Part shown: positions 1-20,104 of the stretch, piece after piece
How positions within the stretch are numbered: position 1 is the stretch's first letter
How the letters are laid out: the number at the start of each line of letters is the position of its first letter
Source: Spirochaetota bacterium
Lineage (GTDB): Bacteria > Spirochaetota > UBA4802 > UBA5550
Length of the DNA: 64,000 bases
Direction: 5' to 3'
Assembly: GCA_963664815.2 (NCBI GenBank)
Contig: CAXXHB010000003.1
Span: forward strand, 3,360,001 to 3,424,000
Program-made: the position numbers and the translations under genes
Notes under the pieces: model-generated
What the model was told of the DNA's origin: nothing
Databases searched by the model: none
The model's input: only the letters and a program-made list of their open reading frames with translations

Positions 1-162
1 CATATTGTTGGAAAAGTATTTGAAGCAAGAATTAACCGGTTTTGCCAAAAGCGTATTAGAGAAATTTATGATTACTGTAATACAGTAAGGGAGACAGCTT
101 CTCCGAAAAATATCATGATAATTGATCAAATTGAAGGTATGATCTTTGATGTGATGCTTTAA
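1..162 (+). CDS. 3' end of a hypothetical protein (truncated by window edge)
   Basis: Frame 1 is open from base 1 to TAA at 160-162 (HIVGKVFEARINRFCQKRIREIYDY...DVML*), converging on the CHAT gene. Confidence 0.5.
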   Translation, partial: HIVGKVFEARINRFCQKRIREIYDYCNTVRETASPKNIMIIDQIEGMIFDVML

Positions 163-164
163 CC

Positions 165-3119
165 TTATTCATACAGCACAAATCCGGCCCAGTAATAAGG
201 GTCGGATTTTTTAGTAATAAACTCATCTTTAGTCCTTTTAACAGCTTCACGGTATGAACATTTATCTTTCTGGACTTTACTATACATGCTTACCATAAAT
301 TTCTTTGTGGCTTCATCATCAACTTCCCACAGGGTCACAAGTACACTGTTTGCCCCTGCAACCTGGAATCCCCGTGTTAATCCTGTAATCCCGTCCCCGC
401 TTACAAATTTACCCATTCCTGTATTGCAGGCCGAAAGTACAACTATTTCAGCCTTAATATTGAGAACAGAAGCATCCTCAACTGTAAGATAACCGTCCTC
501 TTCGCTGTCATTGATTAAGCCGGAAACTTCAGAGAACACAAGAGCAGAGTATAATGGATATTCCGGATTAAAGTACCCGTGACATGAAAAGTGTATAGAT
601 TTATAATCAAGCAGTCTACCTTCAGCAGAAAGCTGCTTTAACTTCTTCTCTGTAACATCATGACCTGTGTATATATCGACACCGGAATTATTGAATATTT
701 CTTTACCTATCTGTATTACTTCATCACCGGTTCCTGAAATATTATTCCATTTAAAACCGCACTCACTGAAATATTCAGAAGGCTTATTGAAACACCTCTC
801 AGCAATTCGTTTATTATCTTCCTGTGGTAATAAATGATTACGGTATCTCCCTTTTGTCTCACCCTTTTTATCATCTTTGTCAGAATAAATGCCTCCGCCA
901 AATGCCAGAAATTTCTTATCAATTGTGTAGTTACGATCGCGGATCATCACTGATACGGAAATAGATGGTGTGAAAGTGATTAACTTTTTATTAAGATAAT
1001 TACCATCTGCATCGCGAAGAGCATCAAAGGGTAGAAATGCCAGTGGACCGTCAGGAACGATTATCAGGTGGTTTTTATTTTTGATGTATTGCTGTACGGG
1101 ATTGATTAATGTATTGTAAAGATCTATTGAAAGCTTCTTAACAGTAAGTTCACTATAATCATAGCATGTGGTAATATCACTTGGATTGCATTTAGTAATC
1201 TCTTTTCTGAAATCATCAATTTTATCAGAATATAGATACTCCTTATCCAGCTCTATAACTTCTGTATCTTCCGCAGAGATTATAAGTATATACGGATTAA
1301 GATACTCCCCTTTTTGAGGTGGAATAATATATTCAAGTATTATACCATCGGTACCACAGAGTTCTTTTGCCTGTTCAATAGTTGCGATATCCGGATTACG
1401 CAGCTGCCTGTACTTTTCATTCGACATGAGGGAATTATCGAGGGCGATGAAATCGGATTCAGCCTGTGCGAGTTGGGATGATAAATTAGAGAGTCTTTTT
1501 TCATGATAATTTCTTTCTTCATCAGTCATTTCAAATATTGGTAATGATATAATTTTTTGCCTGATGGTTGATAGATGCTCAATATTATCTCGAAGATTCT
1601 GAAATTGCATAATGATGTCATTACTTATACCACAAGCATGAGCTGCTGATTTTATTGATAATCTTTCAGAATAACCCATTGAGCGCATGCGTTCTGAAAT
1701 ATTAAAAAATGTTCGTAAATCCTCAATTTCCTTAAATACGGTTAAAGTGTAATAAAAAGAAATAATATTACGTGTTATAAATAGAATTCCACCGGAAACA
1801 TCTGTTTTACGATTTTTTTCAATAACTTCAACAGCAGTTAGTATTATTGGCAAAGATTTATTGTAATACTTTTTATTAAGGTAGTTTGAACATATAATAT
1901 TTGAAATATTGATTATATCTTGATAAGCTGATGTTTCTTTTATTATTGTAAAGGATTTGTTTAAATATTCTAATCCTTTGTCAGTTGCTTCTATATCAAG
2001 GTATAACAATCCAAGCTGTAAAATAACATTAGCTGTTTCGGGATGATTATTACCGAATACTTTTTTATGTTTTTCTAAAGATTTTAAATAATAGTTTTCA
2101 GCCGTTTCATAGTTTTTCAGATTATAATAAGCACTACCTAAATAGAAATCGCTTCTGGATGTTTCTGGATGATATGCTTCATCCATTATTGTATTTACCT
2201 GTGAGCATAATTCGATTGTTTTATTAAAATCCATTTTTTCACAATATGCAAGACCAAGATTATTATAGATTTTAGATTTTAAATACTTTTTAAAATCCAA
2301 TTTGTTATTATCAATAATTTTGAGAGCTTCAGAATAAAATTCTATAGAATCAGTTATTTTCCCATTTTTATAAAAAGCAGCACCTAAGTTATTATAGCTT
2401 TTCACTAAAGGACTTAAATCTTTATCTGATCTTTTCTTTTTTATAGATAAGGCTTTATAAAAAAAATAAATTGACTGTTCTATGTTTCCTTCATCCTGAT
2501 ATATTGCACCTAATAAATCATAGATCCTATAATGAAGTATGCTATTTGAAATTTTTTTGCACTCAAGTTCTTTCAAAGCTTTCAGACAAAAATCAATAGA
2601 ACGGGATAAATTTGCCTTATTATAATAAACCAATCCTATATAATAATAACACGGTGCTTTTTTACTAATTTCATCATCATGTAAGCAATCTTCACAATGT
2701 AAGATTACATCTTCCCATAGCGATAGCGCTAATGAAATTTGACCAGTTTTATCTGCTTGATCAGCTAAATCTAATTTTTCATCAACCATATCACCATTAA
2801 ACTTTATAAAACTGGGTAAAGGAAAAACGGAATAATCATCATCGTCATAATATAGATATTTTGCTTTAACTTGATCTTTAGTTTCTTTAGTAAACTCAGC
2901 AATTGATTTGCTAAAAAATTTATTCAAAGCATCAGGTATAGGCATATTCGCTTTCTTAAAATGTTCATGTATAACTTTTTCAACAACCAATTTTATTGTC
3001 TCTCTTACTTCTCTATCACCGGATTCTTCAGCGGCTTGTATTATTTTTTTTAATTCATCTGAATCATTAATTTCATCAGATGAATTATGAGGATTATCGG
3101 GAGGATTATTCTGTGTCAT
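165..3119 (-). CDS. TPR-repeat + CHAT (caspase-like, clan CD) protease, cytoplasmic
   Basis: Multiple TPRs (YNNLGAAFY, YNNLGLAY, HPETA); CHAT motifs LIIVPDGPLAFLPFDAL, IHFSCHG (His), VVLSACNTG (Cys), TLWEVDD, PYYWAGFVLY; no signal peptide. Confidence 0.93.
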   Translation of the reverse strand: MTQNNPPDNPHNSSDEINDSDELKKIIQAAEESGDREVRETIKLVVEKVIHEHFKKANMPIPDALNKFFSKSIAEFTKETKDQVKAKYLYYDDDDYSVFPLPSFIKFNGDMVDEKLDLADQADKTGQISLALSLWEDVILHCEDCLHDDEISKKAPCYYYIGLVYYNKANLSRSIDFCLKALKELECKKISNSILHYRIYDLLGAIYQDEGNIEQSIYFFYKALSIKKKRSDKDLSPLVKSYNNLGAAFYKNGKITDSIEFYSEALKIIDNNKLDFKKYLKSKIYNNLGLAYCEKMDFNKTIELCSQVNTIMDEAYHPETSRSDFYLGSAYYNLKNYETAENYYLKSLEKHKKVFGNNHPETANVILQLGLLYLDIEATDKGLEYLNKSFTIIKETSAYQDIINISNIICSNYLNKKYYNKSLPIILTAVEVIEKNRKTDVSGGILFITRNIISFYYTLTVFKEIEDLRTFFNISERMRSMGYSERLSIKSAAHACGISNDIIMQFQNLRDNIEHLSTIRQKIISLPIFEMTDEERNYHEKRLSNLSSQLAQAESDFIALDNSLMSNEKYRQLRNPDIATIEQAKELCGTDGIILEYIIPPQKGEYLNPYILIISAEDTEVIELDKEYLYSDKIDDFRKEITKCNPSDITTCYDYSELTVKKLSIDLYNTLINPVQQYIKNKNHLIIVPDGPLAFLPFDALRDADGNYLNKKLITFTPSISVSVMIRDRNYTIDKKFLAFGGGIYSDKDDKKGETKGRYRNHLLPQEDNKRIAERCFNKPSEYFSECGFKWNNISGTGDEVIQIGKEIFNNSGVDIYTGHDVTEKKLKQLSAEGRLLDYKSIHFSCHGYFNPEYPLYSALVFSEVSGLINDSEEDGYLTVEDASVLNIKAEIVVLSACNTGMGKFVSGDGITGLTRGFQVAGANSVLVTLWEVDDEATKKFMVSMYSKVQKDKCSYREAVKRTKDEFITKKSDPYYWAGFVLYE

Positions 3120-3143
3120 TGAAGCGTATTAATCTTAAAGAAG

Positions 3144-3854
3144 TTAATTCAATGAAATAGCCCGGAAATATTCACCATCTGCAGAAAGAATATACTCCCC
3201 TTTATCCGGTACCTTGAATTCAATAGAACCATTGACCGGATTACCCGATTGAGCATAACCGTTGCCAGTTATAAAGAATTCTTTCAACTGGTCATCACAT
3301 TGTATAATAATTTTAATCGATTCATCTTCATGTTTTATAATACAATTATATTCTTTATCCCCTGCGGCAAATTTAAATGGAATTTCTTTATAAGTTTTAT
3401 CCTTGGCAACACCACCTTTTGTAGTTCCTGCCGCAACACCGATCAACCCTTCTGGTGATGATAAAAGATTTATTATTTTTAATGTATTAACCAGGTCTTC
3501 CTTAACCGATGCAAGAACACCCTGTACACCCTTTTCAGTGGATTCAATTATCTCTTTAATGGATGGTTTAGAAGCAACAAGCTCCTTCAGTCGAGCAAAT
3601 GCGGCTTTACTCTTTCTGTTTTTTTCAGCTATCTCTGCAACCAGTGGAGCAAATCTCTCTGCTGCTTTCTTTGCAAATTCAGCACCCTCTTCACTTTCGA
3701 ACCAGGGGATATCTTCGATCTTATGTTCTTTCAAGTATTTGTCGAGTTTTTCATAATCATCACTATACATTTCGGCAGCGGACTCACCAAAATATTTTAC
3801 TATTACAAGATCAGCAGAAGTCAGTTTATTTTTATTAGTCATTGGTTTCTCCAT
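3144..3854 (-). CDS. Hypothetical soluble protein, putative anti-sigma / CHAT substrate
   Basis: Lies between sigma and CHAT genes with short gaps; helical N-terminus, beta-rich C-terminus, no TM segment; function inferred from context. Confidence 0.6.
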   Translation of the reverse strand: MEKPMTNKNKLTSADLVIVKYFGESAAEMYSDDYEKLDKYLKEHKIEDIPWFESEEGAEFAKKAAERFAPLVAEIAEKNRKSKAAFARLKELVASKPSIKEIIESTEKGVQGVLASVKEDLVNTLKIINLLSSPEGLIGVAAGTTKGGVAKDKTYKEIPFKFAAGDKEYNCIIKHEDESIKIIIQCDDQLKEFFITGNGYAQSGNPVNGSIEFKVPDKGEYILSADGEYFRAISLN

Positions 3855-3862
3855 AATTTATC

Positions 3863-4477
3863 TTACACAAGATCTTCTTTTTTAATACCTTTATTCTCAA
3901 GACAGGCTTTAACTAATTTTTTGCCTAAGCTGCGGCCGTCTTTTACAAGTTCTGTTTCAACATTTAATTGCTGGGCAATAATTGCCGGACGGACACCACG
4001 CATTATTTCTGCCATAATATATGAAAGATCTATATTGTTATCTTTTGGCAAACGCTCAATACAATCTATCAACGATTCTTTGAGTTCTGCTTCGGGATGG
4101 TTGCCGTTTGTTTTCTCCAAAGCATCATGTACTTCTTTTTCGTTTTCATCTTTTATTTCATCAGAATTATGCAAAGGTTCATTTTTATTAATATGTTTTC
4201 GTAACTCGCTTCTTAAAACAAGATATAAATAGTTTACAGCCTGGCCTTCATGTTCCCCTGTAAAATTGGTTCTAAGCATTTTGAGAAAAACTTCTATTGT
4301 ACTGAAGATAACATCGTCAATGTCGTCCGGATTAAAATAAGTAATATCAAACTCTCTTAAAGATTTTATCAATTTTGCCTTTAATAAACCGTAAGATTTA
4401 TTATAAAACTTTTCACCTGCTTTTCTATCAGGATTTTCACCGTTACGCAATTTTAAACAGTATTGAATAATCTCCAT
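3863..4477 (-). CDS. Divergent ECF-type RNA polymerase sigma factor
   Basis: Region 2-like DDIDDVIFS..FTGEHEGQAVNYLYLVLR; region 4-like LIDCIERLP..RGVRPAIIAQQLNV..VK..KKLVKACL; start at 4477 has GGGGA RBS (ORF track start 4507 is the alternative). Confidence 0.75.
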   Translation of the reverse strand: MEIIQYCLKLRNGENPDRKAGEKFYNKSYGLLKAKLIKSLREFDITYFNPDDIDDVIFSTIEVFLKMLRTNFTGEHEGQAVNYLYLVLRSELRKHINKNEPLHNSDEIKDENEKEVHDALEKTNGNHPEAELKESLIDCIERLPKDNNIDLSYIMAEIMRGVRPAIIAQQLNVETELVKDGRSLGKKLVKACLENKGIKKEDLV

Positions 4478-4508
4478 TGACTTATCCCCATATTTTAATT
4501 TCTCCATT

Positions 4509-4536
4509 AAAATAGATAATATTCAATAAAAGTCAA
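4509..4536 (-). promoter_or_regulatory. Putative sigma70 promoter of the sigma/anti-sigma/CHAT operon
   Basis: Minus strand TTGACT-N16-TATTTT upstream of the 4477 start. Confidence 0.4.
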
Positions 4537-4594
4537 GGCTTTAACTTCCTCTCTCTTGTTATTTTGGAAAACAGAAAAGTAAATTTAAAAAATC

Positions 4595-4621
4595 TGATAT
4601 TAATATCCTCTTCCAGCTCTC
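4595..4621 (+). promoter_or_regulatory. Conserved motif copy 1 (TGATATTAAT-N11-GCTCTC), putative ECF promoter
   Basis: Same bipartite motif at 4809-4836 and 5158-5185; RBS AGGAGG and ATG 4647 follow. Confidence 0.65.
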
Positions 4622-4646
4622 CTCAATTAAAGAAAAGGAGGATACC

Positions 4647-4802
4647 ATGGAAAACTTAATCAGAAACTTCACTACGAAAAAAGTAGAACGTGCAGACATT
4701 ATTCTCGCACAACTTGCCGAAATATACTCTGCAGTCGATTCATGCAATCTATCAAACGGTAAAATTATCTGCCGCAGGCTCGAAATAATAAAAAAATTAT
4801 AA
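4647..4802 (+). CDS. Small 51-aa protein (not in ORF track), paralogue of the C-terminus of 4864-5160
   Basis: AGGAGG RBS; MENLIRNFTTKKVERADIILAQLAEIYSAVDSCNLSNGKIICRRLEIIKKL*. Confidence 0.65.
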   Translation: MENLIRNFTTKKVERADIILAQLAEIYSAVDSCNLSNGKIICRRLEIIKKL

Positions 4803-4808
4803 TTTCGG

Positions 4809-4836
4809 TGATATTAATCCGGGGCAAAACGCTCTC
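4809..4836 (+). promoter_or_regulatory. Conserved motif copy 2 (TGATATTAAT-N12-GCTCTC)
   Basis: Exact match of both half-sites; ATG at 4864. Confidence 0.65.
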
Positions 4837-4863
4837 TTCTAATAAAAGGAAAAGAAGAATAAT

Positions 4864-5160
4864 ATGAAAAAGTTAATCTATTCTTTTGAAGGTAACGATC
4901 TAAGACATTATGCCGGTGTGGCCAAACAATACGATTTTCTTGATGAAAGGTCAAGGCATTTTCTCTATAACATAGGTTCTCTTCTTTATCTCAAGGAGAA
5001 TGGAGAATCAATTAATTTATCAAATAAACAGGAAAACTGGACAGATTCACTTCTTACTCAACTCACCTCGGAATTTTCAATAGTCGATAGCTGCTGTCTT
5101 TCAAAAAGCAAGGCTCACTGCAGCAGATGCGAAAAATTAAAAAATATTTCAGCGTTGTGA
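4864..5160 (+). CDS. Hypothetical 98-aa protein with Cys-rich C-terminus
   Basis: ORF with purine-rich RBS; similar to both neighbours. Confidence 0.7.
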   Translation: MKKLIYSFEGNDLRHYAGVAKQYDFLDERSRHFLYNIGSLLYLKENGESINLSNKQENWTDSLLTQLTSEFSIVDSCCLSKSKAHCSRCEKLKNISAL

Positions 5161-5185
5161 TATTAATTCGCGATTAATTGCTCTC
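5158..5185 (+). promoter_or_regulatory. Conserved motif copy 3 (TGATATTAAT-N12-GCTCTC)
   Basis: Exact match of both half-sites; GAGGAGG RBS and ATG 5209 follow. Confidence 0.65.
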
Positions 5186-5208
5186 TTAAAAGTAAAGAGG
5201 AGGATGAC

Positions 5209-5544
5209 ATGATAAACAACTTCAACAGCATCAACCGTAAACCCCGGTTTGCTTTTGCTTTAGCAAAAAAATACAATCGCCTAAGCAATGGGGCAGGCTG
5301 CCTGCTTTATGACAGAGTAAAGTATCTTCATGAAGATCTGAAGAACCAGCCTCTCATCTTTAAAGAAATACATCTCAACGCGGCAGCAAAGCTTGACCTT
5401 ATCAGTGAAAGCGAAGGGTTCCTTATCTTTTACAGTGCGATGTTTATGTATGAGGAAGATAAATATCATCCAGTGTTCAGGCCATTGCCTTTAAACGGGA
5501 GAAGATCCTTTATGCTCGACCCTGATTATTTCAATCAGAAATGA
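5209..5544 (+). CDS. Hypothetical 111-aa protein
   Basis: Strong RBS; N-terminal AKKYNRL..LLY resembles AKQYDFL..FLY of 4864-5160. Confidence 0.7.
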   Translation: MINNFNSINRKPRFAFALAKKYNRLSNGAGCLLYDRVKYLHEDLKNQPLIFKEIHLNAAAKLDLISESEGFLIFYSAMFMYEEDKYHPVFRPLPLNGRRSFMLDPDYFNQK

Positions 5545-5572
5545 CACCATAAAATTATAAGGAGGCAGGTAT

Positions 5573-5884
5573 ATGAAGCATAATTCAAAATCCGGTCTTT
5601 ATTCAATACACGGTTTTGAAAGATCGATTGAGCGTGAGATAAGCGATAATGAGATACACTTTGTATTGAGGTATGGTGAAGTATATGAAACCAGATGCGG
5701 ACGCCTGGCGTTCTGGTTTAACAAAGATTCTGCTGACAGGTGCCCGCTGCCATGGTCAGCTAAAAAGAATGCATTTTATGTTGCAGTGATACAGGCCTCA
5801 GACGGCGTTGTAGTTACTACAATGTTCACCCCTGTTAAAAAGCAGGAGTGGCAATCACCTTCAGATTTATACAGGATAGCATAA
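5573..5884 (+). CDS. DUF4258-like (RelE/BrnT-fold) putative toxin
   Basis: Motif SIHGFERSIEREISDNEIHFVLRYG and C-terminal VVVTT strand; AGGAGG RBS. Confidence 0.65.
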   Translation: MKHNSKSGLYSIHGFERSIEREISDNEIHFVLRYGEVYETRCGRLAFWFNKDSADRCPLPWSAKKNAFYVAVIQASDGVVVTTMFTPVKKQEWQSPSDLYRIA

Positions 5885-6174
5885 TGCAGATAAATAATAA
5901 ATCGATAAAAGCAGATAGCAATTCCATTGATGATGACGGCTACTCACCTTCGGAGAAGCTTGATCACATCGCAGGTGTTTTTCATGAGCAGATTGATGAT
6001 ATAGTCATGCAGTTAAATCAGAATATGATGGTTGATGAAGACCTTTTACCCTTCAACCTGCTCAGGAGGGTCATACTTATGACAATCAATGTTTATGGAT
6101 TTGAAGATGTAAATATTGCAATAGATACGTTTCTCGAAGAGGCTCTCTCTTACGCAGAGCAGACAATACAATAA
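5884..6174 (+). CDS. Acidic hypothetical protein (possible antitoxin)
   Basis: ATG overlaps TAA of the preceding gene (TAATG); D/E-rich and helical. Confidence 0.6.
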   Translation: MQINNKSIKADSNSIDDDGYSPSEKLDHIAGVFHEQIDDIVMQLNQNMMVDEDLLPFNLLRRVILMTINVYGFEDVNIAIDTFLEEALSYAEQTIQ

Positions 6175-6187
6175 CAGGAGTTAAAGC

Positions 6188-6955
6188 ATGAGTAAAAAAG
6201 ACGAAATTTACACAGGCGAAACAAAAAAAGGTAAACGCAATGGCTTCGGCAGGTGTGATTATGCCGACGGCTCATGGTATGCCGGAGAGTGGAAGAATGG
6301 TAAAAAACATGGTCAGGGTTGTGAGATAAACAAAAGCGGCATAAGCTATATGGGAAGATATACTGATGGCGAGTACGACAGCTTCGGCACGCTTTTCCCT
6401 GTTCCGGGGAATAAAGATCAGGTACTTACATCCGGTCAATTCAGTAAAGAAGCTTTTAATGGTATAGGCCTGGTCTTAAACGAGCATGGCGGGCCGTCAT
6501 ACGCAGGACAGCTTATAGAATCAGGAATGTCAGGAATCGGGTGCTGGTATCATCCGAACGGAACTGTCATAGCTGGTGAAAATAAAGACACAAAAAGCAC
6601 TGCTGTTTCCCTCGAAATATATGCCGATGGTTCGCACAGCCTGCGTCATTATCTCAACGGCATATTGCATGGCGATGTAATTAACTGGTCCCCTGACGGC
6701 ACAAGGACAGTCTGTAAGTTTGCCGAAGGTGAGCAACAGGGACCGTGCGAGATATTCAAGCACGACGGTACAATAATTGTCGCATTGTCAGACCATAAAG
6801 GTTTTCAGGGAGAGGTCATGTTTATTTACAGCGACGGTTACAACGTGAAAAAGAACTATAAAGACGACAGGCCCTTCGGTGATGTTATTGTTACCGGACC
6901 TGATGGCACTTCGGTTACAATCAGTCAGAAAGAGGCAAAAAGGAGGGGAATATGA
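6188..6955 (+). CDS. MORN-repeat protein
   Basis: YTGETKKGKRNGFG, YAGEWKNGKKHGQG and related repeats. Confidence 0.85.
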   Translation: MSKKDEIYTGETKKGKRNGFGRCDYADGSWYAGEWKNGKKHGQGCEINKSGISYMGRYTDGEYDSFGTLFPVPGNKDQVLTSGQFSKEAFNGIGLVLNEHGGPSYAGQLIESGMSGIGCWYHPNGTVIAGENKDTKSTAVSLEIYADGSHSLRHYLNGILHGDVINWSPDGTRTVCKFAEGEQQGPCEIFKHDGTIIVALSDHKGFQGEVMFIYSDGYNVKKNYKDDRPFGDVIVTGPDGTSVTISQKEAKRRGI

Positions 6956-8373
6956 ACCTTATTCAGAAACTTATAAGAAAAAAGCCAGAAAAGTGGTACA
7001 ACAGGGAGAATATACCTGCAATTGAAAATGCGCTGAACACTGCAATTGACAGGTATTACGATCTTGACTTCCATTTCAGAAATCCCCTGACGCCAATGAG
7101 TGAACACTTCCTGGGCTGCGGATACTACGATTTCTATGTTCTTGGAGCGACTTTCCCAAAAGAAGTGGATATATTTCTGGCCCGTATTTTTGAAAAGATA
7201 ATTAAGAAGAATTACACGCCATGCAATGAAGAGATCATGAAATATCTGAAAGGTAAAATAGGTCAAACCGGTTTTACAAAAACGTTCTCTGATTACATTA
7301 ACAAGATGATCGGGTTTAACTATAAGTGTTTCAGTTCAGATCAGGGTGAACTGACTGATTATATCGGTTCAGGTAATTTTTTTATAAAGAACAGCAGGGG
7401 AGATAAAATTGTAATCTCGATCATGAATAATCAAATCCCTGATAATCAGAACAGGGGTGGTGTGCTGAATATAAATCTTACAGCTAACAGCTCGGTAGAA
7501 GGTGCACGCGAGGCATGCTGCGAGTTTATAGATCTTGTAAACAGGGAGCTTGGTACAGAGATACAAGGGAGCCAATATGCCATGGGCGCAAGAGGCTATC
7601 CTGTTCGTGTCGGTTTCCAGTCCTGGGATGATATTAAAATACCCGAAGAACTGAAAAAAATGTTAAGATTCCATATTACAGATTTTATTTCTCATATCGA
7701 CAGATTTAAAGATGCAGGAATAAGACCCTCAAGAGGGATTATAATTTCCGGATCTCCCGGAACCGGCAAAACAATGCTCGGCAGAGTGTTATGCTCAAAT
7801 ATCAATATACCCTTTTTCTATGCCGTTGCCGGAGATTTCCAGCAGACGTTCGGCGGCCCGAAGATTGAAGAGTTGTATAATACAGCTTCTATTTATGCTC
7901 CTTCAATTGTATTTATTGAAGATGCGGACATATTTCTTCAGAAACGGCTCTTCAATAATAACAGCGGTACACTGACAGATTTTTTAAATATTATCGACGG
8001 TTTAAAAGAAAATAAGGGTGTGATAACAATCCTCACATGCAACAATCCAGAACTTATCGATGAGGCAGTAAAAAACAGACCGAAACGTTTCGATGTAATC
8101 ATCGAATTTCCCAACCCTGCACTTGAACAAAGAGTAGATATTCTCATGTCAAAACTTGAAAAACATATAGAAAGTACAGATGTTTTACATCTTGTGGATG
8201 CCGCTGTTAAGATGGAGGGGTTTTCCGGAGCCCATCTTGCAGAGTTTGCAGAGCGGCTTATCATGTCAAAGATATATGCGGATAAACCGTTTATAGATTG
8301 GGAGATCATATTCACAGAGCTTGAAAGTTTCGGATTCAGGAAACCTACAGCGCAACAGATCGGTATCAGGTAA
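6952..8373 (+). CDS. AAA+ ATPase (single AAA module, uncharacterised N-terminal domain)
   Basis: Walker A GSPGTGKT, Walker B IVFIEDAD, SRH TCNNPELIDEAVKNRPKRFD. Confidence 0.9.
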   Translation: MNLIQKLIRKKPEKWYNRENIPAIENALNTAIDRYYDLDFHFRNPLTPMSEHFLGCGYYDFYVLGATFPKEVDIFLARIFEKIIKKNYTPCNEEIMKYLKGKIGQTGFTKTFSDYINKMIGFNYKCFSSDQGELTDYIGSGNFFIKNSRGDKIVISIMNNQIPDNQNRGGVLNINLTANSSVEGAREACCEFIDLVNRELGTEIQGSQYAMGARGYPVRVGFQSWDDIKIPEELKKMLRFHITDFISHIDRFKDAGIRPSRGIIISGSPGTGKTMLGRVLCSNINIPFFYAVAGDFQQTFGGPKIEELYNTASIYAPSIVFIEDADIFLQKRLFNNNSGTLTDFLNIIDGLKENKGVITILTCNNPELIDEAVKNRPKRFDVIIEFPNPALEQRVDILMSKLEKHIESTDVLHLVDAAVKMEGFSGAHLAEFAERLIMSKIYADKPFIDWEIIFTELESFGFRKPTAQQIGIR

Positions 8374-8395
8374 AAAATAAAATGAGGATAATATT

Positions 8396-8563
8396 ATGAA
8401 TAAAAATAAAATGATATGCAGCAAATGCGGTGATAAATGCGGTACACATGCTTTCGCATACTTTTGTCCTGAATGCGGCAAACAGTTGTGCGGTTCATGC
8501 CATACAAATGCATTTTGTACCGACTGTTGGCCAGTCGGTGTAAAAATGATCAAAGTAAGCTAA
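8396..8563 (+). CDS. 55-aa zinc-finger peptide with four CxxC motifs (not in ORF track)
   Basis: GAGGA RBS; MNKNKMICSKCGDKCGTHAFAYFCPECGKQLCGSCHTNAFCTDCWPVGVKMIKVS*; fills the gap between the ATPase genes. Confidence 0.75.
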   Translation: MNKNKMICSKCGDKCGTHAFAYFCPECGKQLCGSCHTNAFCTDCWPVGVKMIKVS

Positions 8564-8574
8564 AGGAGGATTGG

Positions 8575-9993
8575 ATGAATTTTAAAACGAAAATGAAATC
8601 ATGGAACAGCAATATCCTTCAGGCAGAGAAATTACCGGCTGTCGATAATGCCTTAAAGAAAGCCGTGGAACATAATTATGACTTATTTGAATATCTTTTT
8701 ACAACTGATACAAGACTGTTCCAATACTATCTTGGATGCGCATCACATGAGATATATATACTCGATGTAGAGATTGAAAAAGGTACTGATATAATTTTTG
8801 CATCATTGATAGATGAAGTCATTAAAGAAAACTACAAATGCAATAACAATCTTGTAAAAGAGCACCTGGAGTCATGGATTGGTACAGAGGGATTCCAGAG
8901 ATATGATTATGACAGGTACCTGAAGAATATAGGTTTCAATCATTCAAGCCTGTCGTCAGGTGATGGTGAGTTTATACATTACATTTCTGCCGGCAACTGT
9001 TTTCTTGAAGATTCTAATGGTACAAGATTTGGAATTCATATACCGAAGTTTCAAATGACATTCGGTATTATGGGTTGCGGTTTTAAAATGTCGATTCTTG
9101 CAGATGGAAATACTCCTGATGTCCGGGTTTTATGTTCGGAATTTATAAGCAGTTTATACGTCCATCTGAATAATATTATTAAAAAGAAATCCTATGCCCT
9201 TAATCCGAAATGTATTTCAGTTCCGATTGAATCTATTTCATGGGATAAACTTAAAATACCGGCAGAACTCAAGAGAGACATAGATTTTCATATTACCAGT
9301 TTCATCTCGCATATTAATGAATTCAAAAAAGCAGGCATCAGGGCATCGCGTGGCATAATCATAGTGGGCCCTCCGGGAAACGGTAAAACTATGCTTACAA
9401 AAATTCTGTGTACTAATATTGAAGTTGCATTCTTTTATGCCAAACCAAATGACTTCTCGAATAATTATGGTGAACCCGGCATTGAAGATCTCTACAGAAC
9501 TGCTTCGAAGAATACACCTGCAATTGTTCTCATTGAAGATGCGGATATTTATCTGCAGAGCCGCACATTCAATTCCAATGGGGGGAAATTAAGCGAGTTC
9601 CTTAATATAATAGACGGTATCAACGATAACAACGGGATTATAACGATCCTCACATGCAACAATCCGGAACTCCTTGATGAAGCAGTCAGAAACAGGCCCA
9701 AGAGGTTCGATGTGATCATTGAGTTCCCGAATCCAGCGCTGGAACAGCGGAAAGAGATACTCTTTGATAAACTGAAGAAGCATCTTTCTACAGGTGACAT
9801 ATCCCTTATAGATGAAGCCGCTGAAAAGTTTGAGGGATTCTCCGGAGCACATATATGCGAGTTTGCGGAAAGACTTATCATGTCCAGGATCTACAGTGGC
9901 AAGAAGTGTATAGATCGTGATATATTCGACGAAGAAATCGAAAAATTCGGCTTTTCACCATCCGGAAAGAAAGGGAAAGCCGGTATCAGTTAA
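8575..9993 (+). CDS. AAA+ ATPase, paralogue of 6952-8373
   Basis: GPPGNGKT, IVLIEDAD, NRPKRFDVIIEFPNPALEQR identical to paralogue; start at 8575 after AGGAGG. Confidence 0.9.
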   Translation: MNFKTKMKSWNSNILQAEKLPAVDNALKKAVEHNYDLFEYLFTTDTRLFQYYLGCASHEIYILDVEIEKGTDIIFASLIDEVIKENYKCNNNLVKEHLESWIGTEGFQRYDYDRYLKNIGFNHSSLSSGDGEFIHYISAGNCFLEDSNGTRFGIHIPKFQMTFGIMGCGFKMSILADGNTPDVRVLCSEFISSLYVHLNNIIKKKSYALNPKCISVPIESISWDKLKIPAELKRDIDFHITSFISHINEFKKAGIRASRGIIIVGPPGNGKTMLTKILCTNIEVAFFYAKPNDFSNNYGEPGIEDLYRTASKNTPAIVLIEDADIYLQSRTFNSNGGKLSEFLNIIDGINDNNGIITILTCNNPELLDEAVRNRPKRFDVIIEFPNPALEQRKEILFDKLKKHLSTGDISLIDEAAEKFEGFSGAHICEFAERLIMSRIYSGKKCIDRDIFDEEIEKFGFSPSGKKGKAGIS

Positions 9994-10087
9994 TTAACAG
10001 CTTCACCCGCTGAGCCTGGCACATTAACAATCTGTAAAAAACCGGGAATAGATATAACTTTAAAAAATTATTTATAAGGAGAATAAA

Positions 10088-10405
10088 ATGAAACACCTGA
10101 TGAGCATAACAGCAGCAGTAATCTTATCACTCCCGCTTTACGCGGAAACGTTACACGGCATTTCTGTATATACACGTAATGGATGCAGCAGATGCGTGTA
10201 CACGATAAATTATCTTAAAAATCATAATATCCCACATGTGGAATATCCGATTGAAGAAGAGAAAAATTACAACAGCCTGTGTGAAATAATAAGCAGATCG
10301 GGAAAACAAACTAATGGGATAATCAGTACACCTGTAATAATCAAAGATGGTGCTGTTTATTTTAACATAGAAAATCTTGAAACATTCCTTGAATCATTGA
10401 AGTAA
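10088..10405 (+). CDS. Exported glutaredoxin/NrdH-like protein
   Basis: Signal peptide; VYTRNGCSRC active-site motif; STPVII cis-Pro motif. Confidence 0.75.
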   Translation: MKHLMSITAAVILSLPLYAETLHGISVYTRNGCSRCVYTINYLKNHNIPHVEYPIEEEKNYNSLCEIISRSGKQTNGIISTPVIIKDGAVYFNIENLETFLESLK

Positions 10406-10450
10406 AGAACAGAGTTCTTTAAAAATAAACCGGTTAAAAGGAAGTACAGG

Positions 10451-10624
10451 ATGAATACCAAACGGATAATTATTGAACAGATCGAAGGTGAAAAAAGCAG
10501 CCCTGAAAAATCAAATTTTGATTCGTTCAGTGACGGATTTTCCCGGGGATTCTCACTGAAGAGTGCGGTATTTATGGCTCTTGTTATGATGATGATTGTT
10601 TTACTGCTGGTTATGATTTTGTGA
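10451..10624 (+). CDS. 57-aa small membrane protein (not in ORF track)
   Basis: AAGGAAG RBS; C-terminal hydrophobic helix AVFMALVMMMIVLLLVMIL. Confidence 0.5.
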   Translation: MNTKRIIIEQIEGEKSSPEKSNFDSFSDGFSRGFSLKSAVFMALVMMMIVLLLVMIL

Positions 10625-10697
10625 AGACCGGCAGATAAGTATTTATTGCAGGGACTATGTTCACCATGAATTTAAAAACAGCTAAAAGGAGATTGCT

Positions 10698-11000
10698 ATG
10701 AATAAAAATTACTACAGTCTTGAAGGAAAGTGCATAACAGAAAGGAAGGAACTGTTTGAATCGGATCCTAAGACATATATATACAGTGCTCTGCATGAAA
10801 TCATTAACAGTTCGTTTGAACTTGTGGAGGCTCATGAGGATGAACTTGATGTTGCTTTTTATGAAGCTTTGCCTTTTGAGGTTCTCACACAGCTGTTGAA
10901 CTATATGTCGGGGATATTTGACCTCAATGATATATTTGATCATATCGAGACCATGGAAAAGCTGCTGCGGGAACAGGTGCAGTTAAGAAAAATTCAGTAA
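10698..11000 (+). CDS. Acidic hypothetical protein
   Basis: AGGAG RBS; co-directional with island genes. Confidence 0.65.
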   Translation: MNKNYYSLEGKCITERKELFESDPKTYIYSALHEIINSSFELVEAHEDELDVAFYEALPFEVLTQLLNYMSGIFDLNDIFDHIETMEKLLREQVQLRKIQ

Positions 11001-11016
11001 TACAGGTTAACCAGTA

Positions 11017-11154
11017 ATGAGAACTAACAGACCGGATATAGCAAAAGCGGCAGGTATGATCACAGGAGCAATAATTTTTTTCTTTGTTGTGAAATTTATT
11101 GCCATCTTTTCCGGAATTCTGGTTCTGCTGATCCTTTTTCTGAAAAGAATCTAG
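11017..11154 (+). CDS. 45-aa hydrophobic peptide (not in ORF track)
   Basis: MRTNRPDIAKAAGMITGAIIFFFVVKFIAIFSGILVLLILFLKRI*; weak RBS. Confidence 0.4.
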   Translation: MRTNRPDIAKAAGMITGAIIFFFVVKFIAIFSGILVLLILFLKRI

Positions 11155-11184
11155 GGATAAAAAATATTATTAGGGAAGTACAGA

Positions 11185-11439
11185 ATGGATGATAAATTCA
11201 AAATTAAATACCATGATTCACTGAGAGAATATTATAACAATGATGAAAAGCGCCTGACACATGAAAAGGCTGATAAACGTGCAAGGATATCTAACAGCAT
11301 GGGTTATTTTACGGGTAAGTTTATTTCAGGGTACATTATAGGTTATATTATAGGGATCATACTCGCTTTCTTGTTTATTTGGTACTGTATTGTAAATCCA
11401 TTGATCATTCCAATTGTTAAAATAATCTTTGGAAGGTGA
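11185..11439 (+). CDS. Small membrane protein
   Basis: C-terminal hydrophobic stretch with GxxxG repeats (GYFTG, GYIIGYIIG). Confidence 0.6.
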   Translation: MDDKFKIKYHDSLREYYNNDEKRLTHEKADKRARISNSMGYFTGKFISGYIIGYIIGIILAFLFIWYCIVNPLIIPIVKIIFGR

Positions 11440-11702
11440 TTATGTGCAGAACAATAAAGGAATTTCTGTCTTTTACGGTAAAACTTCTGGTTGTTGTTTT
11501 CATCTTTGCATGGCTTGAGGAAATACTTAACAGGCTGATCAACTTCATTGTGAGAATATGGAAAACGAGAGGGCATGATCCGCGTGAACTTAAAGCGGAA
11601 AATATGGAAAAGTATTATATGAAACATGGAGTCCAGTGCAGCAGCTGTCTGTATTGGATTCCTGAAGGACTTGATACATGCCCCGTATGCGGGAATAAGT
11701 AA
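11436..11702 (+). CDS. Small membrane protein with C-terminal zinc ribbon
   Basis: N-terminal TM; CSSC...CPVCG. Confidence 0.6.
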   Translation: MIMCRTIKEFLSFTVKLLVVVFIFAWLEEILNRLINFIVRIWKTRGHDPRELKAENMEKYYMKHGVQCSSCLYWIPEGLDTCPVCGNK

Positions 11703-11823
11703 ATATTGAGAAGAGTATGGAAAAAGCAGAAAATGTACCTGGTGACAATTTAAAACCAGATGTGTAATTGAAGCCGGAATCGCCGGTTTTCCGGCATCCT
11801 GTTACTGATCAGCTGCCGAATAA

Positions 11824-11850: not shown

Positions 11851-11853
11851 ATG

Positions 11854-11926
11854 CAGGCCACGAAGGACTCGAACCTTCAACACTCGGTTTTGGAGACCGA
11901 TGCTCTACCAATTGAACTAGTGACCT
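11854..11926 (-). tRNA. trnW: tRNA-Trp (CCA)
   Basis: Reverse complement AGGTCACTAGTTCAATTGGTAGAGCATCGGTCTCCAAAACCGAGTGTTGAAGGTTCGAGTCCTTCGTGGCCTG; cloverleaf, anticodon CCA; 3' CCA tail not encoded. Confidence 0.97.
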
Positions 11927-16755: not shown

Positions 16756-16914
16756 ACATTTACTCTCCTTATTTATTATTATTTTTATCGTTATATCGAA
16801 GCTTATGTCTCTATATAACCAGTGCGGAAAAGCAAATGACATGGCGCAAGCAGAATTTTTAAAAATTTTATATATTAATAAGCCAGGTTTATCAAAGAAG
16901 ATATTTTGCCTTGC

Positions 16915-17100
16915 CACCTCCGGGGGTGCGGGGGCTTAGGAATACAGGTTGCTGTAAGTATACTTATACAGACAGTTCGGCTTTGCCCCTTCCGGGCGCC
17001 CGAGCGCAGCGACAGAGTACCCCTGGGGTAGGTGCGGGGGCTTATGGTACAGGTAAATTTACCAGATGATGTACCCGACAGACCGAAGTGTGCAGGGGCT
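16915..17100. repeat. GC-rich REP-like/structured repeat cluster
   Basis: GGTGCGGGGGCTTA..TACAGGT repeated at ~16925 and 17031, partial GTGCAGGGGCT at ~17090; internal palindromes AAGTATACTT and GGTAAATTTACC. Confidence 0.55.
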
Positions 17101-19793: not shown

Positions 19794-20104
19794 AAATCCT
19801 CAATTTAGCTTTATATTAGCTTTATATTAACTTTCAATAATAATTCCTGAACTTTTTATTTATATAAAATTTTCTATTTTCCCCGCCGCCGAAAGCGGCA
19901 GTGAAAATTAATCGTTTATTTTATACAAAATATATGTTAAGAATTTTATGTTGATTAATTTTATATTCTGTCTGCTCAAATTTCCTGCCAACTTTCTTTA
20001 ATTATCGACTTTCTGCAATCAGGATAACATTAACTCACTACAACATTCCATAGAGTTAACACTTTTATAATATCGCAAATCAAGTCAAATAAATATTTTT
20101 TTTC

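Follow-up and report, generated by a model that had tools for sequence, protein, structure and literature searches.

The locus and its three-gene operon

At the left end of a 64,000-nucleotide stretch of DNA from a Spirochaetota bacterium (contig CAXXHB010000003.1, positions 3,360,001 to 3,424,000; the whole stretch is called the window below), three leftward open reading frames (ORFs) stand in tight series, back to back with a row of rightward cargo genes. In order of reading they encode a divergent, probable sigma factor of the extracytoplasmic function (ECF) type, a soluble protein of 236 aa and a protease that joins tetratricopeptide repeats (TPRs) to a CHAT domain; the gaps between them are 8 nt and 24 nt. 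The operon, a promoter-like motif that recurs beside it and the genes that follow the motif may together form a switch in which proteolysis frees the sigma factor. The genome is 5.2 Mb in size with a G+C content of 37.8%, and our family scans took in window ORFs up to 14.4 kb. A first-pass annotation of the same DNA had proposed a switch of this kind; all the features it described are confirmed, at or near the coordinates it gave. The tight leftward operon is among them—all three ORFs are intact—and it is the ancestry of the middle protein, the nature of the tRNA-Trp island, the extent of the regulon and the rarity of the arrangement that we read differently.

The TPR-CHAT protease

The last gene of the operon (165–3119, minus strand) encodes a 984-aa protein whose residues 666–983 match the Pfam CHAT family (PF12770) at E 2.4e-56, with 191.7 bits against a cut-off of 24 bits and with profile positions 6–287 of 289 covered; several Pfam TPR families match residues ~154–400. 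The protein has neither a signal peptide nor a transmembrane (TM) segment—its maximum 19-residue hydropathy is 1.28—and is predicted to be cytoplasmic. The His and Cys motifs reported as intact in the first-pass annotation are so: H847 (in IHFSCHG, of the pattern IHFxCHG) and C898 (in LSACNTG) are invariant in an alignment of the three spirochaete TPR-CHATs recovered, and we take these two residues to be the CHAT catalytic dyad. Their spacing agrees with that of the dyad H862/C907 described for DdvA. This is the sole CHAT match in the genome, and the G+C content of its gene is 26–32% against the genomic 37.8%. The model for Csx29, the TPR-CHAT protein of type III-E CRISPR systems, gives it 25.4 bits (NF041237), far below the cut-off of 300 bits; the CHAT domain alone, searched against PDB sequences, found no solved relative at E<=0.1.

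The sigma factor

The first gene of the operon (3863–4507, minus strand) encodes 214 aa, or 204 aa from an alternative start at 4477. The first-pass annotation had given the gene as an ECF sigma factor at 3863–4477, a start that is the second Met of the longer ORF and at which one homologue begins; the protein is sigma-like as claimed, with a weaker family score than had been implied. It matches the NCBIfam model TIGR02937 (sigma70-ECF) at E 6.4e-7 over profile positions 28–152 of 165, with 29.1 bits against a cut-off of 42.9 bits, and Pfam returned nothing even at E 10. An iterated search ties it to the sigma genes of 20 related loci, one of which (L072) reaches 90 bits on TIGR02937, and a profile built from the window protein and these 20 aligns with E. 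coli sigma-E (1or7) from sigma2 to sigma4 at E 1.1e-17. The sequence thus points to a probable sigma factor of the ECF type that has diverged very far. Searches with the single sequence recover little, because the protein diverges too fast: a word-index search gave 2 homologues, and among 64 genomes of its family, besides its own, weak matches appeared in 2 only. Upstream of the gene lies a sigma-70-like hexamer pair, TTGACT-16-TATTTT (4509–4536, minus strand; consensus scan), which is the sole candidate promoter for it and a weak lead—sigma-70-like sites are not enriched in the region, with 46 found against 46.1 expected.

The 236-aa middle protein

Between the two lies the gene for the 236-aa protein (3144–3854, minus strand), which is predicted to consist of a helical N-terminal part, a flexible linker and a C-terminal beta-sandwich. 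It is soluble, as the first-pass annotation had said: there is no hydrophobic segment, and the maximum 19-residue Kyte-Doolittle value is 1.12. In the AlphaFold2 model, which has a mean predicted local distance difference test score (pLDDT) of 59, helices span residues 13–127 and the beta-sandwich residues 156–235 at pLDDT 76–92; residues 98–154, between the helical part and the beta domain, fall below 50, and the linker contains a semi-conserved G-L-x-P element. Foldseek returned nothing for this model at E<=0.001, and the beta domain resembles generic immunoglobulin-like or carbohydrate-binding-module-like sandwiches; the same domain recurs as repeats in long SpaA/prealbumin-like surface proteins.

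Neither Pfam, NCBIfam (E<=1) nor PADLOC holds a family that matches the protein, and an alignment of its close homologues, scanned against genome and metagenome contigs, found no relative. A word-index search gave 5 homologues, and a profile search of 1.84 billion representative proteins gave 28 at E<=1e-3, 5 of them at E<=1e-30. The more distant members of the family, of ~190 aa, have the C-terminal beta domain of ~80 residues in common with the window protein and carry an N-terminal H-x3-C-x2-C, the zinc motif of zinc-binding anti-sigma (ZAS) factors; when nine of them were scanned with Pfam zf-HC2, two passed (28.7 and 23.3 bits, cut-off 22.2) and a third scored 21.4. The motif is present in 17 of the 20 spirochaete module proteins described below. 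Since it is lost in the window protein and kept in these 17, the window protein is best placed, on sequence grounds, as a derived member of a ZAS-type lineage and not as a ZAS protein itself. Two further comparisons are compatible with little more than a lead: in the PDB the family profile reaches the N-terminal domain of RsiW at just E 0.14, and in the Protein Atlas the nearest clusters are unnamed spirochaete hypotheticals, with a zf-HC2 cluster at 0.87.

Csx29 cleaves Csx30 in type III-E systems, and the first-pass annotation had cast the locus as a stand-alone analogue in which the CHAT protein cuts the middle protein. No relationship of the middle protein to Csx30 is detectable, and its descent is that of a ZAS-type anti-sigma factor whose zinc motif has been lost. 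We also considered, and set aside, a bacterial gasdermin, which would be of similar size and have a CHAT neighbour; neither PADLOC nor Pfam supports it, and the family has ZAS-type relatives.

A conserved pair with a changing protease

An alignment of the broad middle-protein family was searched against 401 sampled genomes of the phylum, and the loci found were fetched and their ORFs scanned with local profiles. Twenty genomes match, and all belong to the order of the window, where they fall into four families; among 122 genomes of that order, 4 have full-length relatives of the window type. Twenty modules carry the middle-protein family, of which 19 have a sigma gene of the same family directly upstream of the middle-protein gene, and the twentieth is cut by a contig end. 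Directly downstream of the sigma gene is where the cognate anti-sigma gene of an ECF group is expected, and it is where the middle gene lies, both in the window (8-nt gap) and in the other modules of this count.

The synteny search for trios also bears out the third partner, since a CHAT-type gene adjoins the pair in 17 of the 20 modules. It takes four architectures: three TPR-CHATs of 958–995 aa (the window, L015 and L016), twelve members of a ~530-aa CHAT family, one kinase-TPR-CHAT and one protein of 693 aa. The evidence for the CHAT part differs between them—in the kinase-TPR protein, of 1284 aa, it comes from the iterated search alone; one ~530-aa protein scanned against Pfam scores 33.2 bits on CHAT (cut-off 24), a second has no NCBIfam match, and the other ten are linked by the iterated search at E<=1e-167. 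In the three modules that have no CHAT gene the contigs end at or beside the pair. No module protein has a TM segment. A pair that stays constant while its protease partner changes is the pattern expected if the protease and the pair work together.

Some modules of the ~530-aa type lie beside other genes that attract attention. L071, L072 and L078 have Cas1 close by, and L071, L072 and L080 a TM1812-type CARF protein (four modules in all); some are also beside cyclic nucleotide monophosphate (cNMP)-binding and GAF-HD proteins. In L072 (G039:C10), L071 (G304:C32), L077–L079 and L080 the ~530-aa CHAT protein has an unassigned N-terminal part of ~340 aa, and the neighbourhood of L071, L072 and L077–L080 includes Cas1, a TM1812/DxTHG CARF protein, a cNMP-binding protein, a GAF-HD phosphodiesterase-like protein and a DUF3800-like protein of 680 aa. 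These modules may be a version of the same switch that is triggered by cyclic nucleotides or by type III CRISPR. As a separate observation, one 21-kb contig of G063 carries two modules (L074 and L015), one with the 1284-aa Ser/Thr-kinase-TPR-(CHAT) protein and one with a TPR-CHAT of 958 aa, and the two flank a shared cluster of three genes, CsgG-like, TPR and 571-aa.

Beyond the phylum, a scan with the TPR-CHAT alignment gave 79 loci, mostly in records of Acidobacteriota, Bacteroidota and Proteobacteria, eleven of which we inspected. Five have a sigma gene, an ORF of 245–321 aa and a CHAT protein of 928–1111 aa in that order, one more has an extra ORF between, and in four the CHAT protein follows straight after the sigma gene (the trios and sigma-CHAT pairs are L132, L139, L125, L157, L148, L134, L143, L155, L140 and L152). 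The middle ORF has H-x3-C-x2-C in L132, L139 and L125; it has a hydrophobic segment in L125, L157, L148 and L134, and the CHAT proteins of L125, L139 and L157 have a hydrophobic N-terminus, so these are probably envelope-spanning versions. The spirochaete family profile matches none of these middle ORFs apart from a weak hit to L125 (E 7.8e-4). These trios and pairs resemble DdvA/DdvS with its parts unfused, and they seem to be spread more widely than the DdvA paper states. As far as gene order and sequence tell, the sigma/anti-sigma/CHAT trio as such is recurrent, and the spirochaete family is its fully cytoplasmic form, with an anti-sigma lineage of its own. The stand-alone trio of the first-pass annotation holds for the window, in which no CRISPR-like array was found, but is less unusual than was implied.

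The promoter-like motif

The first-pass annotation had three bipartite motif copies heading the divergent row, and they are there, on the plus strand. The first, TGATATTAAT-N11-GCTCTC (P1, 4595–4621), lies 25 nt before the start of a 51-aa ORF; the second (P2, 4809–4836, N12 spacer) lies 27 nt before a 98-aa ORF; and the third (P3, 5158–5185, N12 spacer), which contains a TGA that ends the 98-aa ORF, lies 23 nt before a 111-aa ORF. Each thus ends 23–27 nt ahead of the start of a small ORF with an AGGAGG-like Shine-Dalgarno sequence. Both boxes are identical in the three copies and the spacers have unrelated sequences; a 12-bp palindrome, GATATTAATATC, overlaps P1. The pattern TGATATTAAT-N11/12-GCTCTC occurs in none of 100 shuffles, and its exact matches in the whole genome are the three window copies (0 for a reversed-pattern control); a search that allowed two plus one mismatches found no extra site in the window.

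A fourth copy, GATATTAAT-N12-GCTCTT on the minus strand (L023:15804-15829 = G000:C3:3359804-3359829), came from a script run over the genome and stands 171–196 nt left of window position 1, at a distance of 336 nt from the stop codon of the CHAT gene. Behind it come first a zinc-finger ORF of 52 aa with four CxxC pairs (L023:15567-15725, minus strand), which is 41% identical over 44 residues to a zinc-finger ORF of the rightward cargo, and then an 81-aa ORF (L023:15223-15468, minus strand). With these two ORFs the candidate regulon flanks the operon on both sides and reaches past the left edge of the window; the first-pass annotation had equated the regulon with the divergent row, and only the rightward arm of it was thus described, the second arm lying left of the CHAT gene and outside the window. 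The genome holds one further match to the 9+5-base (14-base) form, at C3:1296550, with no ribosome-binding site or start codon near; about one match is expected by chance.

Related sites occur elsewhere. The same-genus locus L014 keeps TGATATTAAT-N12-GCTCTA after its orthologue of the 98-aa ORF. In L016, a locus of another genus, three copies of TTCCGRTA-N17-RTCWT stand in the cargo that runs divergently from the sigma gene, and their boxes align box for box with those of the window motif; that genome has 11 matches to the pattern against 6 for a control, and 3 of the 11 fall within 1.7 kb. A generalised pattern, GATA[AT]T-N13-15-G[CG]TC[TA] (GATAWT-N13-15-GSTCW), which was derived from the window and L016 themselves, has 14 matches in 292 kb of loci, where 20 shuffles averaged 4.25 (range 0–9). 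Seven of the 14 are on the correct strand and at most 40 nt upstream of the start of an ORF; two of the seven precede sigma ORFs, that of L073 by 18 nt and that of L074 by 30 nt, and neither locus was used in deriving the pattern.

The cargo genes

The co-directional rightward ORFs span 4647–11702 on the plus strand, with no convincing terminator interrupting the row. The row begins with the three small ORFs of 51, 98 and 111 aa (4647–5544), which alignment shows to be paralogous and two of which have Cys-rich C-termini; the 98-aa ORF has an orthologue in a same-genus genome at 59% identity (E 3.5e-38). We considered these small Cys-rich ORFs as precursors of ribosomally synthesised and post-translationally modified peptides and set the idea aside, as no modification enzymes are present. 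Next come a DUF4258-like ORF of 103 aa and an overlapping ORF of 108 aa (5573–6174), with orthologues in L014 at 58% and 64% identity; the DUF4258 match has E 8.3e-5 and 23.2 bits against a 25-bit cut-off, and the two are possibly a toxin/partner pair. L016 also has a DUF4258-like ORF divergent from its sigma gene. A MORN-repeat protein of 255 aa follows (6188–6955; Pfam MORN E 1.6e-9; L014 orthologue 48% identical).

Two paralogous AAA ATPases (6952–9993; Pfam AAA E 2e-22 and 3e-21) then surround a zinc-finger ORF of 55 aa with four CxxC pairs (8396–8563). Their ATPase domain is nearest to the D2 ring of Cdc48/VCP, with PDB matches to E ~1e-47, and their private N-terminal domain had no homologue in a word-index search. 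The longest ORF of the second ATPase overlaps the zinc-finger ORF (8473–8575); by comparison with the first, its true start is probably the Met at 8575. The zinc-finger ORF, sought in three related genomes, gave no convincing match. The distal cargo (10088–11702) comprises a glutaredoxin-like protein with a signal peptide (E 1.3e-5), hydrophobic peptides of 57, 45 and 84 aa, an ORF of 100 aa and an ORF of 88 aa that ends in CxxC...CxxC. PHROGs returned nothing informative for the cargo genes.

Genomic setting

The operon and its rightward cargo lie in a variable region whose right-hand boundary is a tRNA-Trp gene (11853–11926, minus strand; ARAGORN). Positions 1–11800 are absent from three of four same-genus genomes, while the flank from tRNA-Trp through purF is kept in all four; in the fourth, the module and cargo genes are on small contigs, away from its tRNA-Trp. 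On the left, the flank starts at a conserved sigma-54 activator ~2.6 kb left of the window. What the first-pass annotation called a tRNA-Trp island is thus a variable region; as to marks of integration at a tRNA, no integrase was found among the left-flank ORFs scanned and no repeat of the tRNA region of at least 14 nt within 60 kb leftward, and hence no tRNA-derived direct repeat. Two short sequences, at window 19800–19970 and 16898–16941, recur at many sites in same-genus genomes, with dozens of matches at 60–97% identity, and are probably dispersed repeat elements.

A scan for regularly spaced 22-mers found no CRISPR-like array in the window, in agreement with the first-pass annotation. Cas7-11 was not seen near the locus, in scans that included no dedicated Cas7-11 model, and the only Cas1-like match in the genome (C3:1042158-1043015) is ~2.3 Mb from the window. 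Regularly spaced repeats with up to 76 consecutive 22-mers are found at G000:C3:453886-1356737 (the merged coordinates of several arrays); these distant arrays and the Cas1-like gene indicate that the organism has a CRISPR system elsewhere.

Proposed mechanism and alternatives

We read the locus as a cytoplasmic, CRISPR-independent, protease-gated sigma/anti-sigma switch, and give the whole chain a probability of about 0.5. Its parts are not equally secure: the pairing of sigma and anti-sigma is highly probable, the functional coupling of that pair to the CHAT protein is likely, and we favour, somewhat more cautiously, the motif as the promoter of this sigma factor; a role in defence is doubtful. 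At rest, the sigma factor, the anti-sigma factor and the TPR-CHAT would be co-expressed as a standing sensor, from a housekeeping promoter for which only the weak sigma-70-like site speaks. The 236-aa protein would hold the sigma factor through its helical N-terminal part, as the gene pairing and the ZAS-type relatives suggest. A cytoplasmic cue received by the TPR region would activate the His847/Cys898 dyad, and the CHAT domain, by analogy with Csx29/Csx30 and CalpL/CalpT, would then cut the disordered linker at ~98–154 that bears G-L-x-P. Once freed, the sigma factor would take RNA polymerase to the GATATTAAT-N11/12-GCTCT sites; the motifs and their link to the sigma family are observed, and we infer their use as promoters. 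Three copies would drive the rightward row and the fourth, left of the window, the zinc-finger peptide and the 81-aa protein. A stress or anti-invader response is a possible but unsupported output.

A number of observations weigh against this reading. The window sigma lies beneath every curated family cut-off in Pfam and NCBIfam. H-x3-C-x2-C is missing from the middle proteins of the window, L014 and L015, and the N-terminal helices of the 236-aa protein are modelled with low confidence (pLDDT 50–70), so that its predicted anti-sigma role rests on homology of the C-terminal two-thirds and on gene order. The L014 sigma is merely 22% identical to that of the window and yet the motif is kept, a poor fit to simple co-evolution of one sigma with one motif. 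Two of the three motif copies in L016 lie inside a duplicated segment of 75% identity, the small genes behind the window copies are paralogues—so tandem duplication may explain some of the repetition—and the generalised motif, drawn as it was from two of the loci in which it is counted, stands before only 2 of 21 sigma genes, the other 19, the window's included, being without it. The cargo varies from locus to locus, so no common output emerges, and PADLOC gives only generic AAA (IetA/TRIP13-like) and TPR matches at the locus.

Some of these points feed other explanations. The pair could be an ordinary sigma/anti-sigma pair under other control, such as redox or a partner switch, with the CHAT protein as a neighbour that has a separate job, be it as an effector protease or in cutting the sigma factor or the cargo, as PCaspase does PCc-sigma. 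ZAS-type anti-sigma factors of the RsrA type can lose their activity with no proteolysis, in 12 modules the CHAT gene stands outside the operon of the pair, either upstream or on the opposite strand, and the caspase-like protease of Steens et al. is described as cutting a sigma factor and not an anti-sigma factor. Against such a separation, CHAT genes adjoin the pair in 17 of 20 modules over four architectures, which argues for functional coupling, while in the window the genes are just 24 and 8 nt apart and the middle protein has lost the zinc motif on which redox control would act; we hold this account to be unlikely. A very different objection is that the locus survives only as a remnant, decaying or inactive, in which the sigma and anti-sigma-like proteins have drifted beyond function. 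The sub-threshold sigma scores, the lost ZAS motif and the low G+C content of the CHAT gene fit this, but the three ORFs are intact, full-length close homologues exist at 57–92% identity, conservation is strong in the CHAT core and at the catalytic residues, and the form without the ZAS motif has been kept in three genomes (window, L014 and L015), so that decay strikes us as very improbable.

The motif itself might have been copied along with the small genes in tandem duplication, or might serve another regulator, in which case the rightward genes would be unrelated island cargo. The paralogy of the three small ORFs, the overlap of P1 with the palindrome, the want of a copy ahead of the window sigma gene and the divergence of the L014 sigma all lend this some weight. 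Against it, the boxes are exact and the spacers unrelated, and the fourth copy stands across the operon from the other three, at a position that is not paralogous; moreover, a motif similar box for box heads cargo in another genus and precedes two related sigma genes, and both the GATA-N16/17-GCTC spacing and the distance to the start codons suit a promoter. We consider it improbable that the motif is not the promoter of this sigma factor, and retain the protease-gated switch as the preferred reading.

A broader proposal is more tentative, and we would not give it even odds: that one spirochaete order holds an undescribed family of cytoplasmic, immune-like switches, in which a constant ECF sigma factor and an anti-sigma factor with a private beta-sandwich are served by swappable proteases (TPR-CHAT, ~530-aa CHAT, kinase-TPR-CHAT) that cut the linker, with GATAWT-N13-15-GSTCW promoters and tiny regulons private to each locus, which in the window would comprise two Cdc48-like unfoldases, a DUF4258-like protein and zinc-finger peptides. 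If this is true, the CRISPR-linked and the stand-alone forms would be one system with exchangeable triggers. Sigma factors released by proteases have recently appeared as an output arm of type III CRISPR (Craspase, CalpL/T/S) and of the DdvA/DdvS island, and the genes that those systems control, like their non-CRISPR triggers, are mostly unknown. The window locus is tractable in this respect—it is compact and fully soluble, its motif is specific (four local copies and one other 14-base match in 5.2 Mb), its regulon is short and it has relatives that swap the sensor—so that what senses, what is cut and what is switched on become testable in a heterologous host. Should the switch work as proposed, it could also offer an orthogonal module that links a protease to transcription.

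Comparison with known systems

Searches of article full texts, supplementary tables aside, turned up no account of a soluble trio of sigma factor, anti-sigma factor and TPR-CHAT that stands alone and has a defined regulon. The main text of the ECF reclassification (PMC7826278) has 'CHAT' 0 times. Coupling of caspase-like systems to ECF sigma factors has been predicted, and together with Craspase, CalpL/CalpT/CalpS and DdvA/DdvS it makes four precedents whose logic the locus matches. It belongs to none of them, because the Csx29 score is far below its cut-off, neither Cas7-11 nor an array was seen nearby, the proteins are unfused and soluble, and the protease is not Lon.

Type III-E Craspase (Cas7-11, Csx29, Csx30, Csx31 and an RpoE-like sigma factor), likewise encodes a cytoplasmic TPR-CHAT with an ECF-like sigma factor and a soluble would-be holder, and transcription after proteolysis is its proposed output too. 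The window differs in that no array was found in it and no Cas7-11 was seen, its CHAT protein scores 25.4 against 300 bits and its middle protein is of ZAS lineage; guide-RNA pairing cannot be the trigger here.

DdvA/DdvS of Myxococcus xanthus also brings together a sigma factor of the ECF type, an anti-sigma domain and a His-Cys TPR-CHAT that control a neighbouring gene island. DdvA is described as one polypeptide in which a TM helix joins a cytoplasmic anti-sigma domain to a TPR-CHAT in the periplasm, encoded with its ECF sigma factor, and CHAT-mediated release is proposed there and is likewise unproven. In the window the anti-sigma-like protein and the TPR-CHAT are two ORFs, neither with a TM helix or signal peptide (hydropathy maxima 1.12 and 1.28); the zinc motif is lacking, no intramembrane step of the RseP type is needed, and the genes that would be controlled are not those of CRISPR or of a cyclic-oligonucleotide-based antiphage signalling system (CBASS).

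The three-part logic of CalpL/CalpT/CalpS is close, since a soluble protease is described as cutting a soluble anti-sigma factor and freeing an ECF-like sigma factor; CalpL is a Lon protease with a SAVED sensor of cyclic oligoadenylate, depends on Cas10 and is not a TPR-CHAT. In the type III-B cascade of Haliangium (SAVED-CHAT, PCaspase and PCc-sigma), for which Steens et al. report cleavage of the sigma factor by the caspase-like protease, a CHAT-family protease and a caspase-like one share the locus with a sigma factor. There, however, the caspase cuts the sigma factor and an inhibitor, cyclic triadenylate (cA3) is the trigger, and no ZAS-type anti-sigma factor takes part. The Acidobacteriota/Bacteroidota trios have the same order of sigma gene, middle ORF and CHAT gene as the window, and differ in the hydrophobic middle ORFs of L125, L157, L148 and L134, which fall outside the spirochaete family profile apart from the weak hit to L125; the papers searched gave no description of these trios. 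Set beside these systems, the finding is real and coherent, and it is a variation on the precedents of Craspase, DdvA/DdvS and CalpL/T/S rather than a new category.

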